From assembly GCF_053078305.1 (NCBI RefSeq), contig NZ_CP166879.1: a DNA stretch of 64,000 nucleotides; one strand, written 5' to 3'. Shown in pieces: positions 11,555 through 52,415 of the stretch. How positions within the stretch are numbered: position 1 is the first letter of the stretch; each line of letters opens with the position of its first letter. The position numbers were made by a program, and so were the translations under genes. The notes beneath the pieces were generated by a model, which searched no databases, had not been told where the DNA came from, and saw only the letters and a list, made by a program, of their open reading frames with translations.

Positions 11555-13489
11555 ATGTTTCAGGACAACCCGCTGCTAGCGCAGCTTAAACAGCAACTGC
11601 ATTCCCAGACGCCACGCGCTGAAGGGGTGGTAAAAGCCACAGAAAAAGGCTTTGGCTTCCTGGAAGTCGACGCGCAAAAAAGTTATTTCATTCCGCCGCC
11701 GCAGATGAAAAAAGTCATGCATGGCGACCGAATTATCGCGGTGATCCACAGTGAAAAAGAACGTGAATCCGCAGAGCCAGAAGAACTGGTTGAACCGTTC
11801 CTGACTCGTTTCGTGGGTAAAGTTCAGGGCAAAAATGACCGTCTGGCCATCGTTCCTGATCATCCACTCTTAAAAGACGCCATTCCTTGCCGCGCAGCCC
11901 GTGGCCTGAACCACGAGTTTAAAGAAGGCGACTGGGCGGTTGCCGAAATGCGCCGTCATCCGCTGAAAGGCGATCGTTCTTTCTATGCTGAACTGACACA
12001 ATACATCACTTTTGGTGACGACCACTTTGTACCGTGGTGGGTTACACTTGCGCGCCATAATCTGGAAAAAGAAGCACCAGACGGCGTCGCTACCGAAATG
12101 CTCGATGAAGGTCTGGTTCGTGAAGATCTGACCGCGCTGGATTTTGTCACCATCGACAGTGCCAGCACAGAAGATATGGATGACGCCCTTTTCGCTAAGG
12201 CGTTGCCGGATGACAAACTTCAGCTGATTGTGGCGATTGCCGATCCAACCGCGTGGATTGCTGAAGGCAGCAAGCTGGACAAAGCCGCGAAAATTCGCGC
12301 ATTCACCAACTATCTGCCTGGCTTCAACATCCCTATGCTTCCTCGCGAGCTTTCTGACGATCTCTGCTCACTGCGCGCCAATGAAGTCCGTCCGGTACTG
12401 GCATGCCGCATGACGCTCTCCGCTGATGGCACCATTGAAGATAATATCGAATTCTTTGCCGCCACCATCGAATCCAAAGCGAAGCTGGTGTATGACCAGG
12501 TTTCTGACTGGCTGGAAAATACCGGTGACTGGCAGCCTGAAAGTGAAGCAATTGCCGAACAAGTCCGTTTGCTAGCGCAAATTTGCCAACGACGCGGCGA
12601 GTGGCGTCATAACCACGCACTGGTGTTTAAAGATCGCCCGGATTACCGCTTTATTCTCGGTGAAAAAGGTGAAGTGCTGGATATCGTCGCCGAGCCTCGT
12701 CGCATTGCCAACCGTATCGTCGAAGAAGCGATGATCGCCGCTAATATTTGTGCGGCCCGCGTACTGCGCGATAAGCTCGGTTTTGGCATCTATAACGTGC
12801 ATATGGGCTTTGATCCGGCGAATGCCGACGCGCTGGCAGCGTTGCTGAAAACGCACGGTCTGCATGTCGATGCCGAAGAAGTGCTCACGCTGGACGGTTT
12901 CTGCAAACTGCGTCGTGAACTGGACGCGCAACCAACTGGTTTCCTCGACAGCCGCATTCGTCGCTTCCAGTCATTTGCTGAAATTAGCACTGAACCCGGT
13001 CCTCACTTTGGCCTCGGTCTGGAGGCATACGCCACCTGGACTTCGCCGATCCGTAAATATGGCGACATGATCAACCACCGTCTGCTGAAAGCGGTTATCA
13101 AAGGCGAAACTGCGACGCGTCCACAGGATGAAATCACTGTCCAAATGGCCGAGCGTCGCCGTCTCAACCGGATGGCAGAACGTGATGTTGGTGACTGGTT
13201 ATACGCACGCTTCCTGAAAGACAAAGCCGGGACCGACACCCGTTTCGCAGCGGAAATTGTCGATATCAGCCGTGGCGGCATGCGTGTTCGTTTGGTTGAT
13301 AACGGCGCTATCGCCTTTATTCCGGCACCTTTCTTACACGCTGTGCGCGATGAACTGGTTTGCAGCCAGGAAAACGGCACCGTACAAATTAAAGGTGAAA
13401 CGGTTTATAAAGTAACTGACGTTATTGACGTCACCATTGCCGAAGTCCGCATGGAAACCCGCAGCATTATTGCGCGCCCGGTCGCGTAA
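11555..13489 (+). CDS. rnb: Exoribonuclease II
   Basis: 644 aa; N-terminal cold-shock/S1 region, RNB catalytic domain, C-terminal S1; sequence recognised as E. coli RNase II. Confidence 0.95.
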
Positions 13490-45030: not shown

Positions 45031-45531
45031 ATGCCAAAACTCCCCGCACCACTGCGTAAAAAGCTGATTGCCCTTGTTCTGGCCGGTGCCGGGACGTTCA
45101 CGATTGCCACGCATTACACCGGTTACTGGGAAGGGAAAGAAAACTCCACGTATATCGATCCCACCGGTACACCCACCATCTGTTACGGCCATACCGGCCC
45201 GGATGTGAAACCGGGTATGACCCTGACGGATGAAGAATGCCTGGAACTACTGGAAAAGGACATGAAATGGGCCTTTGCGGCCATTGATCGGCGTGTTCAG
45301 GTGCCGCTTACCCGTGGTCAGACGGTGGCGCTGGCTTCGTGGATCTTCTGGGCCGGTGAAACGAACTTTCGCAACTCCACGCTTCTGCGCCTGATCAATG
45401 CCGGGCAGATGCCCGCGTCCTGTAAGCAGTATATCCGCTGGATTTATTCAAAGGGGGTGAAGCTCCCCGGCCTTGAGGCCCGCCGTTCGGCGGATGAATG
45501 GTTATGTCGCTACGATTTGCCGAAAGTCTGA
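45031..45531 (+). CDS. Phage endolysin (lysozyme family, signal-anchor type)
   Basis: 166 aa; N-terminal hydrophobic segment; lysozyme-like catalytic region. Confidence 0.8.
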   Translation: MPKLPAPLRKKLIALVLAGAGTFTIATHYTGYWEGKENSTYIDPTGTPTICYGHTGPDVKPGMTLTDEECLELLEKDMKWAFAAIDRRVQVPLTRGQTVALASWIFWAGETNFRNSTLLRLINAGQMPASCKQYIRWIYSKGVKLPGLEARRSADEWLCRYDLPKV

Positions 45532-45994: not shown

Positions 45995-46196
45995 ATGGCT
46001 GGCTGACTGCCTGGTCCCTCCTGCGCCGGAGCCGTTCACGTTTGGGGCATCGGTCACTTACAACCTGCAACTGCTGGCGGTGATCAAGAACTGCAACGTG
46101 GACAAGGCCAGTATTCGTCGTCTGGAGGCGCGGCGACAACATGAATTTACTGATATGGCCGGAACGCCTGCTGTTCCGGCAGGAAAGACGAAGTAA
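45825..46196 (+). CDS. Putative o-spanin lipoprotein (Rz1-like), out of frame and overlapping i-spanin
   Basis: Part of ORF 45630..46196; lipobox LIGC followed by proline-rich mature region; start uncertain. Confidence 0.4.
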   Translation: MKNNRTFSTARGSRALSAGRWQQCLRPLPLFLMMWLIGCAGPSVKYVPVKPVPIPAEWLADCLVPPAPEPFTFGASVTYNLQLLAVIKNCNVDKASIRRLEARRQHEFTDMAGTPAVPAGKTK

Positions 46197-46206
46197 GGAA
46201 AAAGGT

Positions 46207-46434
46207 ATGGATGATTCAGATCGTGCTCAGGCTGTGATGGAGCGGGGATCAGAACGCGCCCTTTGTAACCGGCTGACACGTAAGCGCCGGGCAGTGGATG
46301 CTCCGGGCAGACGTGTCTGCGCAGACTGTGGCGGAGAGATCCCCGCCGCACGTCTTGTTGCTGTGCCGGATGCCATCCGTTGTGTGAACTGCCAGAACAT
46401 CATGGAGGCCCGTCATGTGGGTCAGCATCGTTAA
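46207..46434 (+). CDS. TraR/DksA-family C4 zinc-finger protein
   Basis: Part of ORF 46141..46434; CADCGGEIP...RCVNCQ four-cysteine finger. Confidence 0.6.
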   Translation: MDDSDRAQAVMERGSERALCNRLTRKRRAVDAPGRRVCADCGGEIPAARLVAVPDAIRCVNCQNIMEARHVGQHR

Positions 46435-46723
46435 AGATTATGTTGTGCCGATCCTTTCGGCGACGGCAACCGCTGGCGGGATATTCATGGCGCTGATGCG
46501 CAAAACGTTTGTCCCCCGCGAGGCCTTTGAAAAACTCTCCGACCGCGTTGAGAAGGTGGAAACCCGCCTGTCGTCACTGCCGACAGAAGCCGAGGTCAAC
46601 CGTCTGAATGTGGAAATCGTGACCCTGCGGGGTGAACTGAAAACCACGAACGCCACGCTCCGCTCTGTCTCCTATCAGAACGAACTGCTGCTGGAGCAGG
46701 CTGTAAGGAAAAAAACGCAATGA
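46415..46723 (+). CDS. Membrane-anchored coiled-coil protein
   Basis: 102 aa; N-terminal TM then coiled coil. Confidence 0.45.
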   Translation: MWVSIVKDYVVPILSATATAGGIFMALMRKTFVPREAFEKLSDRVEKVETRLSSLPTEAEVNRLNVEIVTLRGELKTTNATLRSVSYQNELLLEQAVRKKTQ

Positions 46724-47010
46724 GTGATTTCATTACTGAAGATCAGCGTCTGGTCATTCTGCGGTCGCTGGCAGATTACAACGGTGAACTGGGTGAATCC
46801 GTGCTCCAGGACTGTCTGGATGATTACGGCCACCGCGTGTCCCGCGACACCGTTCACACCCACATAGCCTGGCTTGCCGAGCAGGGACTGGTGCGCAAAC
46901 GCGTTCTGATTAACGGTTATTTCATCGCGGAACTGACCGGTCGTGGGCAGGATGTGGCGGAAGGCCGGGCCTGCGTTCCGGGTGTGAAGAAACCACGCGC
47001 AAGGGGGTAA
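46720..47010 (+). CDS. Hypothetical protein, possible winged helix
   Basis: 96-aa ORF, start overlaps previous stop. Confidence 0.45.
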   Translation: MSDFITEDQRLVILRSLADYNGELGESVLQDCLDDYGHRVSRDTVHTHIAWLAEQGLVRKRVLINGYFIAELTGRGQDVAEGRACVPGVKKPRARG

Positions 47011-47012
47011 CG

Positions 47013-47594
47013 ATGGACAAGCCGACGCGTGGTCGTGTACGCAAGGTGGATTTGCTCCCCGACAGCATCCGTAAGCCGCTGCTGGAAATGCTGCGTGAAA
47101 AACGTCTGACGCAGGTCCAGATCCGCGAGGAAATCAACCGTCTGATCCGTGAGGCGGGCCTGCCGGAAGAGCAGCAGCTTTCACCGGCGGCCATCAGCCG
47201 GGAAGCCTCCCGTAATGAGCTGATTGCCCGTAACCTGCGTGATTTACGCGAGCAGACAAAAGCCATGATGGCCGAACTGGGGGACAAGCCAACCGGTGAA
47301 ACCACAGCGCTGATTCTGGAAATGTCCCGCGCCCTGATGTACCGCCGCCTGCGTGCCGCGACCGAATCTCTGAACAGCGACAGCGACGTGGATATGCGCC
47401 TCATCAAAGACATCCTCCTGTCAGCACAGCGTGCGGAAAGTGCCGCCGAGCGCAGCATTAAGCGTGAAAAAGAAATCCGGGCCGCATTTGCTGAAGAGAT
47501 GGCAAACGCGGTCACCGACGAGCTGCGCGGCGTGGATGGCATGAGCGAGCAGATAGAATTTCGTATCAGGCAGATGCTGCTGGGTAAAGCGTAG
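47013..47594 (+). CDS. Mu gp27-like protein (putative small terminase / packaging DNA-binding subunit)
   Basis: 193 aa; basic N-terminus with HTH-like segment; directly upstream of terminase large subunit. Confidence 0.55.
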   Translation: MDKPTRGRVRKVDLLPDSIRKPLLEMLREKRLTQVQIREEINRLIREAGLPEEQQLSPAAISREASRNELIARNLRDLREQTKAMMAELGDKPTGETTALILEMSRALMYRRLRAATESLNSDSDVDMRLIKDILLSAQRAESAAERSIKREKEIRAAFAEEMANAVTDELRGVDGMSEQIEFRIRQMLLGKA

Positions 47595-47604
47595 GAGGTG
47601 AATC

Positions 47605-47853
47605 ATGGCAACAGATAACCGCTCACTGATGATCTGTGCCCATCAGAAGGCATTCAGTCTTGCAACACAGTTACCTCCTGAAACCATAAAAGTGTGTCGT
47701 GAGTTGACTGAACTCTGCATTGCCGGGGAAATCTCCCTGAAACAACTGCATTCGCTGCTGGCAGAGGCTGTCACTGATGAATTGAGCAGCGTGGACGTGA
47801 TGACTGAAGAGCTTGAGTCCCGAATCAGGGGCATTCTGACAGGTAAAGCATGA
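47605..47853 (+). CDS. Hypothetical protein with C-terminus paralogous to the preceding gene
   Basis: 82 aa; C-terminal AVTDELSSVDVMTEELESRIRGILTGKA matches C-terminus of 47013..47594 (AVTDELRGVDGMSEQIEFRIRQMLLGKA). Confidence 0.45.
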   Translation: MATDNRSLMICAHQKAFSLATQLPPETIKVCRELTELCIAGEISLKQLHSLLAEAVTDELSSVDVMTEELESRIRGILTGKA

Positions 47854-49517
47854 TGAGCAAAGCCAAAGAAACGTCTCCTTCACTGATGCAAATGACGCCT
47901 CCCCGCAAAATTGATCTGGCCGGTGAAAAAGCCCTGCTGGGCGTGGATGTGCCGGACAGCCTTGATTTACCCGGTGATATGCCGGTGTTTCTGGATTATC
48001 AGGCCCGCTGGTTTGAGGATGAAAGTCAGGTCTGCATCGCGGAAAAATCCCGACGCACCGGGCTGACCTGGGCGGAAGCCGGGCGTAACGTCATTACCGC
48101 CGCAAAGCCTAAGCGTCGTGGTGGCCGTAATGTGTTTTATGTGGGGTCAAAGCAGGAGATGGCGCTGGAATATATTTCTGCCTGCGCCCTGTTCTCCCGT
48201 GCCTTTAACCAGCTGGCAGATGCTGATGTGTATGAGCAGACCTTCTGGGATCGGAATAAAAAAGAAGAAATTCTGACCTACATGATCCGCTTTCCGAACA
48301 GTGGATTCAAAATTCAGGCACTGTCTTCCCGTCCGTCAAACCTGCGCGGCCTTCAGGGGGATGTGGTGATTGATGAAGCCGCGTTCCACGAGTCACTGGA
48401 TGAGCTTCTCAAGGCGGCAATGGCGCTCACCATGTGGGGCGCGCGCGTGCGTATTATCTCCACGCATAACGGCGTCGATAATCTGTTTAATCAGTACATT
48501 CAGGAAGCCCGCGAGGGGCGCAAGGATTACAGCGTCCACCGCATAACCCTGGATGATGCCATTGCGGACGGGCTGTACCGTCGTATCTGTTATGTCACCG
48601 GCCGCGAATGGTCACCGGAAAGCGAGCAGAAGTGGCGTGATGATCTCTACAAAAACGCCCCGACCCGTGAGGATGCCGACGAGGAATACGGCTGTATCCC
48701 GAAAAAATCCGGCGGTGCCTATATTCCTCACGCGCTTATTGAAATGGCGATGCTCCGCGACATCCCGATTCTGACGTTTGAAGCCCCGGACGACTTCATC
48801 AGCCGTGCCGCATGGCTGCGTGAATCGGAGGTTTTAACCTGGTGTGAAGAACATTTAAAACCGCTTTTAGAGGCGTTAAATCCCCGTTCCCGCTTCAGCT
48901 TCGGGGAAGACTTTGCCCGCACCGGTGACCTCTCCTGCTTTGTGCTGCTGGAAATCACTGAATCCCTGGCAAAACGCGAGGTGTTTCGCGTGGAGCTGCG
49001 CAACCTGCCGTATGCCCAGCAGGAGCAGGTGATGATGTACATCCTGACCCGCGTTCCGGCGCTGGTCGGTGCGGCGTTCGACGCCACCGGTAACGGCGGC
49101 TATCTGGCCGAAGCCGCGCTGCTGGCCTTTGGCCCGGACATCATCGACTGCGTGATGTTATCGCCGAAGTGGTACGGCGAGTGGATGCCAAAACTGAAGG
49201 CCGAGTTTGAGGATCAGAATATCCTCGTCGCCCGCCATCAGACCACGCTTGATGATTTGCGCCATGTGAAGGTGGTGAACGGTATCCCGCAAATCGACAA
49301 GGGGCGTACGAAGGACCAGAACGCAACGGCTGTGAACGCCCGCCGCCATGGCGATTTTGCCGTGGCGCTCTGTATGGCAAACCGGGCGTCGTACATGGAG
49401 GGCTTCATCCTGGATGAATCAGCCTGTCAGGCGCTGCCGGAGCGGTCGCGGGCCATGGAGGGCGGTTATCGTGATGACGATGAGGCATATCATGAATTTG
49501 ATCGGGGGTGCTGGTAG
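47850..49517 (+). CDS. Terminase large subunit (Mu gp28-like)
   Basis: 555 aa; ATPase and nuclease halves; position before portal. Confidence 0.8.
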   Translation: MMSKAKETSPSLMQMTPPRKIDLAGEKALLGVDVPDSLDLPGDMPVFLDYQARWFEDESQVCIAEKSRRTGLTWAEAGRNVITAAKPKRRGGRNVFYVGSKQEMALEYISACALFSRAFNQLADADVYEQTFWDRNKKEEILTYMIRFPNSGFKIQALSSRPSNLRGLQGDVVIDEAAFHESLDELLKAAMALTMWGARVRIISTHNGVDNLFNQYIQEAREGRKDYSVHRITLDDAIADGLYRRICYVTGREWSPESEQKWRDDLYKNAPTREDADEEYGCIPKKSGGAYIPHALIEMAMLRDIPILTFEAPDDFISRAAWLRESEVLTWCEEHLKPLLEALNPRSRFSFGEDFARTGDLSCFVLLEITESLAKREVFRVELRNLPYAQQEQVMMYILTRVPALVGAAFDATGNGGYLAEAALLAFGPDIIDCVMLSPKWYGEWMPKLKAEFEDQNILVARHQTTLDDLRHVKVVNGIPQIDKGRTKDQNATAVNARRHGDFAVALCMANRASYMEGFILDESACQALPERSRAMEGGYRDDDEAYHEFDRGCW

Positions 49518-51106
49518 TGGGACGTATAATTGATCTTGACGGAAAACCTTTCTCCTTTGACCCGGAGATGCAGAGTGCCGCGCTGGATATTCCGCAGATT
49601 GCCAGCCGTTATATTGAACATCCGGCCTCGGGTATCACCCCGAACCGGGCGGCGCAGTGCCTTCGCGGGGCTGAACGTGGCGATCTGATTGCCCAGTCCG
49701 ATCTGGCCGCTGACATTGAAGAAAAGGATACCCACCTTTTTGCAGAGCTGGGCAAGCGACGTCTTGCCATTCAGGGGGTGCCATGGAGTATTGAGCCGCC
49801 ACCGAACGCCAGCGCGAATGAGAAAAAGGACGCGGAAATGCTCGACGAATATCTGCATTCCGCCGACTGGTTTGATGCCATGCTGTTTGATGCCACCGAT
49901 GCCATCCTGAAGGGCTATTCCTGCATGGAGATTGAGCACGGGATGCTCGGTAAAATGCACATCATCCGCGCCATCCGCTGGCGTGACAGCGGGCATTTCT
50001 GCCTTAACCCGGATGATTTGAGCGAACTGCGGCTGCGTGACGGCAGCCATGCCGGGGTGGCGTTTCAGCCCTTTGGCTGGATAGTGCATCAGTCGCGTTC
50101 ACGCACTGGCTACGGTGGTGCGACGGGGCTTGTCAGAACGCTTATCTGGCCGTTCATTTTCAAAAACTATTCCGTGCGCGATCTGGCTGAATTTCTGGAG
50201 GTGTACGGCCTGCCGATGAAGGTCGGGAAATACCCGTCCGGGGCAACACCGGAGCAGAAAAGCGCCCTGATGCGGGCGGTGATGGATATCGGGCGACGTA
50301 CAGGCGGGATCATCCCTGCCGGGATGTCGCTGGAGTTTCAGGCAGCCGCGAACGGTCAGGCCGATCCGTTTGAAACCATGATTTCGTGGGGGGAGCGTTC
50401 CATCTCCAAAGCTATCCTCGGCGGCACGCTGACCACGGAAGCCGGAGACAAGGGCGCGCGTTCGCTGGGTGAAGTGCATAACGAGGTGCGCCGGGAAATC
50501 AGGGATTCTGATTTACGTCAGCTGGCCGCCACGCTGAACCGCGATCTGGTGTATCCGCTGTATGCCCTGAACACCGCCCACGCCATTGATATCCGTCGCC
50601 TGCCGCGTATCTGTTTCCAGACCAAAGAGCCGGGGGATATCACCAAAATCACCAGTGCGGTGATGCAGCTCAGTACGGGGATGGATATTCCAGATCCCTG
50701 GGTACGGGAGCAGACCGGTATTCCACAGCCAGCCCCCGGTGAAGCCATCTTCCGTGTCCGGCAGAGCAGTAATGAACCCGCGCAGATCAACAGGGAAACA
50801 CCGCCGGAAAAACAGGAAAAGACAGAGCAGACGGCGCTGTCAGCCCGAGTGCCGGAAGCGAAAAGCAGCCCCCGTGATGAACTGGACGACATGGGGGATG
50901 CGGTGCCTGCCCGCCGGTTACAGGAGGCCATCGACCCGCTACTGGAGCCGGTCATTGATGCCATCAGAACGCGGGGGCTGGCGGATGCGCTGGCAGACCT
51001 GCCTGCCCTTTACCGTGAAATGGATGATTCCCGCCTGATGACGCTGCTCAGTGATGCCATGTTTGCTGCGGAAATGAAGGGGATGCTGGATGGCTCAGGG
51101 GATTGA
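49508..51106 (+). CDS. Portal protein (Mu gp29 / DUF935-like)
   Basis: 532 aa; position and size. Confidence 0.8.
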   Translation: MLVVGRIIDLDGKPFSFDPEMQSAALDIPQIASRYIEHPASGITPNRAAQCLRGAERGDLIAQSDLAADIEEKDTHLFAELGKRRLAIQGVPWSIEPPPNASANEKKDAEMLDEYLHSADWFDAMLFDATDAILKGYSCMEIEHGMLGKMHIIRAIRWRDSGHFCLNPDDLSELRLRDGSHAGVAFQPFGWIVHQSRSRTGYGGATGLVRTLIWPFIFKNYSVRDLAEFLEVYGLPMKVGKYPSGATPEQKSALMRAVMDIGRRTGGIIPAGMSLEFQAAANGQADPFETMISWGERSISKAILGGTLTTEAGDKGARSLGEVHNEVRREIRDSDLRQLAATLNRDLVYPLYALNTAHAIDIRRLPRICFQTKEPGDITKITSAVMQLSTGMDIPDPWVREQTGIPQPAPGEAIFRVRQSSNEPAQINRETPPEKQEKTEQTALSARVPEAKSSPRDELDDMGDAVPARRLQEAIDPLLEPVIDAIRTRGLADALADLPALYREMDDSRLMTLLSDAMFAAEMKGMLDGSGD

Positions 51107-52415
51107 TTTAGGTTATGCCGCCACGCTTCCCTCAAAAGAGGCGGTGGCATACTTCCGCGCCAAAGGGGCGCATATCAGCTGGAACTGGTTCGAAACAGAC
51201 GCGGATGTTCATGCCCGTTCATTCACGGCGGCAAAAGTGGCACGCCTGGACGTACTGACCACACTACAGGCGGAAGTGCAGCGTGCTGTTGATGAGGGGA
51301 TTTCACAGAAAGCATTTATCCGCACACTGACACCCCGCCTGCAAAAGCTGGGATGGTGGGGAAAGCAGATTGTGGTGGACAGTGCCGGTAACGCGGAAGA
51401 AGTGCAGCTGGGCAGCCCCCGCCGTCTGGCGCTGATTTACAACGTGAACACCCGCGTGGCTTACAATGCCGGGCGTTACACGCAGATGATGAACAACACG
51501 GACACGCATCCGTTCTGGCAGTATGTAGCGGTGATGGACAGCCGCACCCGCCCGGCGCATTCCGCCCTTAACGGGCTGGTATTCCGCTATGACGATCCGT
51601 TCTGGAATACACACTACCCACCCAATGGCTGGAACTGCCGCTGCCGTGTCCGGCCATTGTCTCAGGCCCGTCTGGATGCAATGGGGTTATCCGTTTCATC
51701 CGGTCAGGATCATCTTTCCACCCGCAATGTTGAGGCTGGCGTGGATAAGCAGACCGGAGAAGTCAGAGAAATGCCGGTGACCACATATTCAGATGGCACC
51801 AGAACCATGACACCGGATGTGGGCTGGTCATATAACCCCGGTTCGGCGGCGTTCGGCACAGACCAGGCGCTGATCCGCAAGCTGATCGAAGTGAAAAGCC
51901 CGGCGTTACGGGAAATGGTGGTTCAGGAGATGAACAACAGCCCGGAGCGGCAGCTGGCGTTCCGCATCTGGGCAAAAAACATCATGAAAACCCGGCGAGG
52001 CGGTAACGATATCCGCACGCTGGGCTTTATGACCGAAAGTATTGCGCAGGCGGTGGAAAGCCGGACGGGAACGCCACCGGCCCGCCTGCTGGCGATGAGC
52101 GGTAAAAATGTGCTCCATGCGGACAGCGTGAAACATCAGAATGACGGTATCGCCCTGACGCCGGAGGATTTCGCGCAGCTTCCCGCCATGCTGGCTTCCC
52201 CCGATGCCGTGCTGTGGGATCATGTCCATCAGAACCTGCTTTACATCACTGAAACCCGTGACGGAACGGCAAAGATTGCCGTCAATGCGCCTTATGGTGT
52301 GAAGCGCCAGCCGGATAAGCTGGATGTGGTAATTAATGCTTACCGGGTAAATAAATTTGATATTGAAAAAGCAATAGAGGGCGGAAAGCTGGAACTACTG
52401 GAAGGTAAATTGTAA
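51090..52415 (+). CDS. Head morphogenesis protein (Mu F / gp30-like)
   Basis: 441 aa; follows portal. Confidence 0.75.
   Translation: MAQGIDLGYAATLPSKEAVAYFRAKGAHISWNWFETDADVHARSFTAAKVARLDVLTTLQAEVQRAVDEGISQKAFIRTLTPRLQKLGWWGKQIVVDSAGNAEEVQLGSPRRLALIYNVNTRVAYNAGRYTQMMNNTDTHPFWQYVAVMDSRTRPAHSALNGLVFRYDDPFWNTHYPPNGWNCRCRVRPLSQARLDAMGLSVSSGQDHLSTRNVEAGVDKQTGEVREMPVTTYSDGTRTMTPDVGWSYNPGSAAFGTDQALIRKLIEVKSPALREMVVQEMNNSPERQLAFRIWAKNIMKTRRGGNDIRTLGFMTESIAQAVESRTGTPPARLLAMSGKNVLHADSVKHQNDGIALTPEDFAQLPAMLASPDAVLWDHVHQNLLYITETRDGTAKIAVNAPYGVKRQPDKLDVVINAYRVNKFDIEKAIEGGKLELLEGKL

Follow-up and report, generated by a model that had tools for sequence, protein, structure and literature searches.

We analysed a stretch of 64,000 nucleotides from contig NZ_CP166879.1 (NCBI RefSeq assembly GCF_053078305.1), hereafter the window, in which a short open reading frame of 82 codons (ORF82) separates the putative small terminase gene gp27 of a Mu-like prophage from terL, the gene of the large terminase. 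The window is part of an Escherichia coli chromosome (positions 10000-12500 are 99.8% identical to the E. coli yciW-rnb-fabI region), and the genes belong to the packaging block of the prophage late operon. The gp27-like protein (193 amino acids, 47013-47594, plus strand, as are ORF82 and terL) matched PF11985 Phage_Mu_Gp27 (E=3e-33) and phrog_426 'terminase small subunit' (E=9e-55). Its TAG stop codon overlaps the strong Shine-Dalgarno sequence of ORF82 (TAGGAGGTGAATC, 47592-47604, by sequence reading). ORF82 follows at 47605-47853, and its stop codon in turn overlaps the start of terL (GCATGATGAGC, likewise read from the sequence), which spans 47850-49517 and was recognised by phrog_2 'terminase large subunit' (E=8e-43). 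Both gp27 and ORF82 terminate in a related segment of 28 codons, here called the tail: copy 1 comprises gp27 codons 166-193 (AVTDELRGVDGMSEQIEFRIRQMLLGKA, 47508-47591) and copy 2 comprises ORF82 codons 55-82 (AVTDELSSVDVMTEELESRIRGILTGKA, 47767-47850). The remainder of ORF82, codons 1-54 (47605-47766), forms an N-domain with homology to tail-less proteins encoded at the same position, between gp27 and terL, in other prophages. In our reading, ORF82 is probably a chimera born by recombination in this plasticity slot, a by-product that is tolerated and at best under weak selection, as opposed to another subunit dedicated to TerL docking.

An initial annotation of this DNA had described the ends of both proteins as a shared C-terminal module, and the resemblance proved real. 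BLASTP with composition adjustment aligned the C-termini of gp27 and ORF82 without gaps at 19/31 identical residues (E=4e-10), and hhalign profile comparison paired ORF82 residues 48-82 with gp27 residues 159-193 (E=4.3e-10). In addition, gp27 residues 162-193 matched the phrog_30922 profile, the family of ORF82 (E=6e-8). Within the tails themselves, 18/28 amino acids and 58/84 nucleotides are identical (69% DNA identity), and the collinear alignment runs precisely to the stop codon of each gene. The 84-nucleotide repeat had been missed by an exact-seed repeat finder because its copies are only 69% identical. Outside the tail, no DNA or protein similarity was detected between ORF82 codons 1-47 and the rest of gp27.

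ORF82 is already catalogued, as a full-length member of phrog_30922 in PHROGs v4 (residues 2-82 against profile positions 2-82 of 82, E=3e-47), a family without an assigned function; a chimeric origin is not recorded for it in the sources we searched. RefSeq lists ORF82 as a hypothetical protein, the label that NCBI gives to members of this family, and it matched neither a Pfam family at E<=0.1 nor phrog_426. An exhaustive profile search with hidden Markov models revealed a relative of its N-domain, P0130 (ORF67, 67 amino acids), which matches ORF82 residues 1-56 (E=1.4e-10) and has a differing end. It occupies the same gp27-terL slot in locus L039 of our comparison set, beside an identical gp27 protein, and is preceded by the same junction (TAGGAGGTGAATCATG) with the ORF82-type Shine-Dalgarno sequence. 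In this arrangement (type D), P0130 is followed by a 119-bp spacer and by a terL with a different leader. Type C (L005) equals type D minus 303 bp and retains a remnant of 9 codons, MATDWFSYE. This mini-ORF (MATDWFSYE*, L005 3593-3622, IMG/VR UViG_2654587996_000001) overlaps the terL start, has the same junction in L014, and is what a 303-bp deletion left behind when it took out the 67-amino-acid slot gene and the spacer, turning type D into type C.

In Salmonella Mu-like prophages the slot holds ORFs of 65 or 87 amino acids. The 65-amino-acid family comprises about 25 clusters, and its residues 6-61 are collinear with ORF82 residues 4-59 (hhalign E=3e-5; BLASTP E=7e-5). A slot homologue of 84 amino acids in L080 matched phrog_30922 (E=4e-4), and related slot ORFs are present in L084 and L092. 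More distant Mu-like phages carry tail-less related ORFs of 58-84 amino acids, together with other small genes, in gaps of 130-630 bp. The tail-less relatives (P0130, the Salmonella 65-amino-acid proteins and the L080 protein) cover only phrog_30922 positions ~2-55; P0130, Salmonella ORF65 and TerL retrieved nothing from Pfam (for TerL, Pfam-A at E<=0.1). A slot gene is missing from Mu, Vibrio ZX4290, Pseudomonas JBD25 and many others, where gp27 abuts terL. ORF82 shares a homologous N-domain, the genomic position and the start context with this slot family. As for the occurrence of the short gene elsewhere in Mu-like phages, relatives without the tail do exist, whereas a second gp27-like tail was present in none of the other loci among 80 diverse ones.

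The slot is also used by other genes. A plus-strand family matching phrog_21398 (65-68 amino acids, MxxEKxxYKxSTELA…) occupies it in L084 (3254-3451), L086 (3093-3299) and L088 (3262-3465), and a minus-strand gene matching phrog_25148 (61-89 amino acids, MKEKLTIDQK…) lies in the slot of L084 (3432-3659), L088 (3440-3709), L093 (3419-3616) and L095 (3274-3459); the function of both families is unknown. The Salmonella 65-amino-acid protein (L029, ~3590-3787) and the L080 protein gave weak matches to phrog_220 ('minor head protein and DNA pilot'; E=2.5e-5 and 6e-4) at positions ~917-974 of its 1338 columns. A relationship of the slot proteins to gp30/MuF of the window through phrog_220 was rejected (hhalign probability 0.2%). 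On the minus strand of the L039 spacer (4205-4323), a Shine-Dalgarno-like sequence (GAGGAGAG) is followed by ATGATG and a frame that stays open back into the slot gene, which might constitute a small antisense ORF.

ORF82 itself is known only from E. coli, where it forms 9 clusters and is found in 24 of 5426 complete genomes. Among the 229 E. coli genomes that harbour this prophage type, 24 have the ORF82 arrangement (type B) and about 205 do not. The closest phage records, at 97% identity, come from Mu-like phages that have inserted into Stx phages. In these records, as in the ~205 genomes, gp27 ends directly on the terL start (type A), and exactly 259 bp, corresponding to ORF82, are absent. 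The composition of the additional DNA is deviant. ORF82 has a G+C content of 0.49 against 0.57-0.59 in its neighbours, and for the ~160 bp preceding the tail G+C content and third-position G+C content (GC3) are 0.48 and 0.49, compared with 0.57-0.59 and 0.62-0.69 for the neighbours and 0.59 and 0.67 for gp27. A Logan contig (ERR987418, 2153 bp; L043 371-613) joins the first 33 codons of ORF82 to unrelated sequence, followed directly by a baseplate gpP-like gene; the contig is either chimeric through misassembly or derived from a defective prophage that underwent a large deletion.

The tail of ORF82 is nearest to the gp27 tail of type A, with 67/84 nucleotides and 21/28 amino acids identical; Salmonella tails rank next (57-60/84), ahead of the adjacent gp27 (58/84 nucleotides). 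The window was compared with the type-A locus L015 in bins of 40 nucleotides. Identity was 39-40/40 up to position 47539, dropped to 27/40 and then to a gap, and returned to 38-40/40 from 47912 onwards. Since identity collapses between near-identical flanks, the junction (47540-47911) is an exchangeable cassette of 372 bp, in which ORF82 is flanked by ~17 codons from the end of gp27 and ~20 codons from the start of terL. Its edges coincide with conserved codons, DGMSE of gp27 and RKIDL of terL. The surrounding backbone is of type A: across 8 kb, identity of the window to type-A prophages is 97.9%, and to other type-B prophages only 90-95%. At the terL starts of the window (47853-47911) and of L001, L005, L025, L026, L044-L046 and L078-L114, the first 13-30 residues of TerL were hypervariable among otherwise 95-97% identical prophages and were followed by the conserved motif PRKIDL-x7-LGVD; this leader is exchanged jointly with the terminal helix of gp27.

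As the simplest origin of ORF82 we propose that two collinear Mu-like genomes underwent an unequal in-frame crossover. The fast-evolving slot family (58-84 amino acids) would have supplied ORF82 residues 1-54, while residues 55-82 and the terL overlap would be the captured 3' end of gp27 from a lineage in which gp27 abuts terL. Breakpoints near codon 55 of the slot gene and near codon 166 of the gp27 gene of the abutting genome would have put the native overlap of gp27 end and terL start (GGTAAAGCATGATG) after the slot gene. As a cassette, ~370 bp long in the window, the entire junction has subsequently been transferred among backbones. The tail copy would then be a hitch-hiking remnant, with the 3' end providing the junction that couples terL.

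ORF82 combines a strong Shine-Dalgarno sequence with an ATGA/TGATG overlap with terL. A scan returned no promoter-like site within 46400-48400, and terminator-like sites were absent from ORF82 and its flanks. ORF82 is in all probability translated and maintains the translational coupling of terL. Either of two ATGs is used as the terL start in type-B relatives; in the window the second one (47853) is the likelier.

No segment of the gp27 family is more conserved than the tail, and this holds from E. coli to the Mu-like phages of Vibrio and Pseudomonas. Conservation reaches 90% or more at 18 of 28 positions among 56 distinct gp27 tails, and the gp27 of Pseudomonas JBD25, at 32% identity overall, still ends in ...RGSDGMSEQLENRIRGILLGKA. 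AlphaFold2 (AF2) predicted gp27 as an N-terminal helical domain and long helices, followed by a loop (172-178) and a terminal helix (179-189), the generic small-terminase layout (PMC9611059). The tail thereby covers the end of a long helix, the loop (RGxDGMS) and a short amphipathic terminal helix. Matches to known structures were absent, both for the gp27 profile against PDB sequences (none below E=0.16) and for the model in a Foldseek search of the PDB (best E=2, not significant).

We compared the tail with TerL. Mu and L115 share 76% identity in the gp27 body, 37% in the gp27 tail and 57% in TerL, whereas the window and Mu share 56%, 70% and 73%, respectively; the phylogeny of the tail thus tracks TerL and not the gp27 body. 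An alternative tail (type II, …AGLSGEAAAEIRREILGIA) was found in 13 loci as well as in Shewanella MuM16-2 and Vibrio 1.028.O, and all of these have a TerL without the N-terminal PRKIDL..LGVD motif, while the motif is present in nearly every locus with the type I tail and a readable TerL start. Type II tails (L115 and L117-L128 from IMG/VR, L047 and L048) are accompanied by a shorter TerL N-terminus. They sit on a Mu-like body, 76% identical to Mu gp27 up to EKEIRQAFAEE, and represent a naturally occurring, clean exchange of domains at the boundary of the tail. The TerL N-terminus is bound by the C-terminal regions of the small terminase (TerS) in lambda and P22, and in P22 gp3 residues 140-162 bind TerL residues 1-58 (PMC9611059). 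Since the gp27 tail co-varies with TerL and the TerS C-terminus binds TerL in these phages, the gp27 tail is, by analogy, probably a TerL-docking element.

The initial annotation had suggested that both tail-bearing proteins might dock on the same partner, such as TerL. This is reasonable for the gp27 tail, given its phylogeny and motif co-variation, but doubtful for ORF82, which has lost the loop signature and evolves almost neutrally. We counted substitutions across 14 type-B loci, which contain 9 distinct ORF82 alleles. The core genes had 29 synonymous and 3 nonsynonymous substitutions in gp26 (N/S per-site ratio 0.04), 49 and 2 in gp27 (0.01), and 88 and 22 in terL (0.07). For ORF82 the counts were 15 and 31, giving a ratio (0.65) that does not differ from neutrality (p=0.12). 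The tails differ as well: the gp27 tail, under very strong purifying selection, has 14 synonymous and 1 nonsynonymous substitutions (0.02), the ORF82 tail 6 and 7 (0.36; Fisher test, p=0.011). An open frame throughout ORF82 is unsurprising under neutrality, its probability by chance being 0.18-0.29. ORF82 retains 14/18 of the conserved gp27-tail positions. The losses fall into the loop, where R172S, G173S (G in some alleles), G176V and S178T replace four residues that are 95-100% conserved in gp27 tails; none of these changes occurs in the 56 gp27 tails, nor does L190T, which is also altered in ORF82. Because the loop signature is lost and the drift is nearly neutral, we read ORF82 as a tolerated by-product, and its tail copy is most likely a hitch-hiking remnant. 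Selection would act at most on the open frame, and possibly weakly on the helix.

Several observations weigh against this reading. The ratio of 0.36 for the ORF82 tail hints at some constraint (p=0.065), and all eight terminal-helix residues (E179, L181, E182, I185, L189, G191, K192 and A193) are kept. ORF82 is intact, with exactly 82 codons, in 9/9 alleles from the 14 loci, and its synonymous diversity is similar to that of the flanks; it is therefore neither very recent nor decayed. Fast evolution would also be expected of an arms-race or exclusion protein. Finally, the direction of the event, with the tail gained and not lost, rests on parsimony and not on a dated tree.

The same observations bear on a functional alternative, in which ORF82 mimics the tail of the small terminase: the captured helix would dock on TerL at or near the gp27 site, and the protein would influence the timing, stoichiometry or nuclease restraint of packaging or else disturb the terminases of co-resident Mu-like phages. 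The link of the gp27 tail to TerL, the fully conserved terminal-helix residues and the loop-plus-helix layout common to the AF2 models of gp27 and ORF82 (the latter predicted as four helices) are compatible with such a role. So are the strong Shine-Dalgarno sequence, co-translation just before terL and the open frame in every allele. Cross-talk is plausible in hosts with several prophages, since some E. coli genomes carry up to 4 of this type, and rapid evolution would fit conflict-driven selection. However, all or most ORF82 alleles carry other residues at the four conserved loop positions, and the substitution ratio cannot be separated from neutral. Tail-less homologues use the same slot elsewhere, with no second tail among the 80 diverse loci, and most related prophages manage without ORF82. 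We consider such a mimic, the main rival of our reading, rather unlikely. Slightly more doubtful still is an extended version, according to which ORF82 uses the captured helix to bind TerL and either tunes packaging of its own phage or sabotages, or discriminates against, the terminases of co-resident prophages, and in which, more broadly, the junction of ~370 bp (gp27 terminal helix, slot gene and TerL leader) is an 'interaction cassette' that sets the specificity of TerS-TerL pairing.

Alternatively, the tail-bearing slot gene could be ancestral, with ORF67 and the Salmonella 65-amino-acid proteins as truncated derivatives and type A arising by deletion between the tail repeats. The type-A tail indeed resembles the head of copy 1 joined to the end of copy 2, ORF67 and ORF82 both terminate in GK[TA], the Salmonella proteins end near an AV.ED motif that aligns with AVTDE, and deletion derivatives do exist, as type C illustrates. 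Yet identity to copy 2 of the window is only ~70-80% for the tail and terL leader of type A, against 97-100% in the flanks, and on these grounds type A was rejected as a recent deletion derivative of the window arrangement. Moreover, gp27 abuts terL directly in all distant relatives, and tail-bearing forms are restricted to E. coli, in contrast to the more widespread tail-less ones. We regard an ancestral tail as improbable.

A partial tandem duplication, as proposed by the initial annotation, would derive copy 2 from the 3' end of the adjacent gp27 with subsequent divergence. The two copies are same-strand direct repeats 259 bp apart, each ending a reading frame, as expected from such an event. 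They are not each other's closest relatives, though: the adjacent copies share 58/84 nucleotides, compared with the 67/84 shared by the ORF82 tail and the type-A gp27 tail, which belongs to another lineage. The intervening DNA is unrelated to gp27 and differs in composition, and the N-domain has a tail-less family of its own. A tandem unit of 259 bp was likewise rejected, the local DNA alignment of the ORF82 N-part with gp27 scoring 22, within the range of shuffled sequences (mean 17.3, maximum 24). In addition, the variant of the adjacent gp27 tail (IEFRIRQM) also occurs in L005 and L039, loci without the ORF82 tail. Local tandem duplication is thus largely refuted, and we give it very little credence. 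That the two tails, both helical and rich in charged residues, resemble each other by chance or amino-acid composition is refuted by the composition-adjusted BLASTP, hhalign (E=4e-10 for each) and PHROG profile (E=6e-8) matches and by an ungapped, collinear alignment at 69% DNA identity that reaches both stops.

Compared with known systems, ORF82 is a mosaic accessory ORF made by recombination; this is ordinary phage mosaicism and not a new system. Its last 28 residues are homologous to the Phage Mu gp27 family (PF11985 Phage_Mu_Gp27/DUF3486; phrog_426), including the terminal-helix signature and the junction of ...GKA-stop with the terL start. It differs from this family by its length (82 versus 193 amino acids), by the absence of the N-terminal domain and long helices (gp27 1-160), and by the loop R172-G173-x-D175-G176-M177-S178, which is not kept. 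Lambda gpNu1 and P22 gp3 resemble gp27 in having an N-terminal domain of DNA-binding type, a helical core and a flexible C-terminal moiety (PMC9611059), and the co-variation of the gp27 tail with the TerL N-terminal region is what a contact of the lambda or P22 kind would predict. They show no sequence or detectable fold relationship to gp27, however, and ORF82 would be a tail without the terminase body. Our literature search on Mu gp27, small terminases and DUF3486 retrieved no work devoted to the tail or to ORF82.

Plasticity regions of Mu-like phages hold short accessory ORFs ('morons'), typically of 34-100 codons (PMC4378225). ORF82 resembles them in being short and patchily distributed, in its deviant composition and in its fixed insertion/deletion site between core genes. 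Unlike classical morons, it lacks its own promoter and terminator. Its translation is chained to that of the core genes on either side, and it includes a piece of a core gene.

The stakes of this explanation are modest: a puzzling repeat is accounted for by phage mosaicism. It illustrates that an in-frame unequal crossover can graft the end of a core gene onto an accessory gene while the downstream essential gene stays translationally coupled. The more useful by-product concerns gp27, whose last ~28 residues form a separable and swappable module that is inherited with TerL and not with the rest of gp27. The co-variation of this tail with PRKIDL..LGVD of TerL provides a testable prediction for the uncharacterised TerS-TerL contact of Mu-type transposable phages, for which ORF82 and the two tail types (I versus II), as chimeras made by nature, would be ready-made probes.

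The gene order of the packaging block in the window agrees with that of phage Mu. Upstream of gp27 lie genes for a lysozyme (45031-45531), a TraR/DksA-like protein (46141-46434), the DUF2730 protein gp25 (46415-46723) and gp26 (46720-47010), and terL is followed by the portal (49508-51106) and MuF (51090-52415) genes. Annotation of the large terminase varies between sources: RefSeq labels the TerL of the window 'hypothetical protein' while PHROGs assigns it as terminase large subunit, and the RefSeq record of Mu labels gp28 'putative portal protein'. One Logan contig encodes a protein of 291 amino acids (P0011) in which gp26 and gp27 are fused in frame (…PRARGVTMDKPTRG…), at the place corresponding to window positions 46999-47015. 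The fusion apparently results from one additional G in the AGGGGGTAA run at the gp26 stop, and could be a sequencing error or slippage in the G run.

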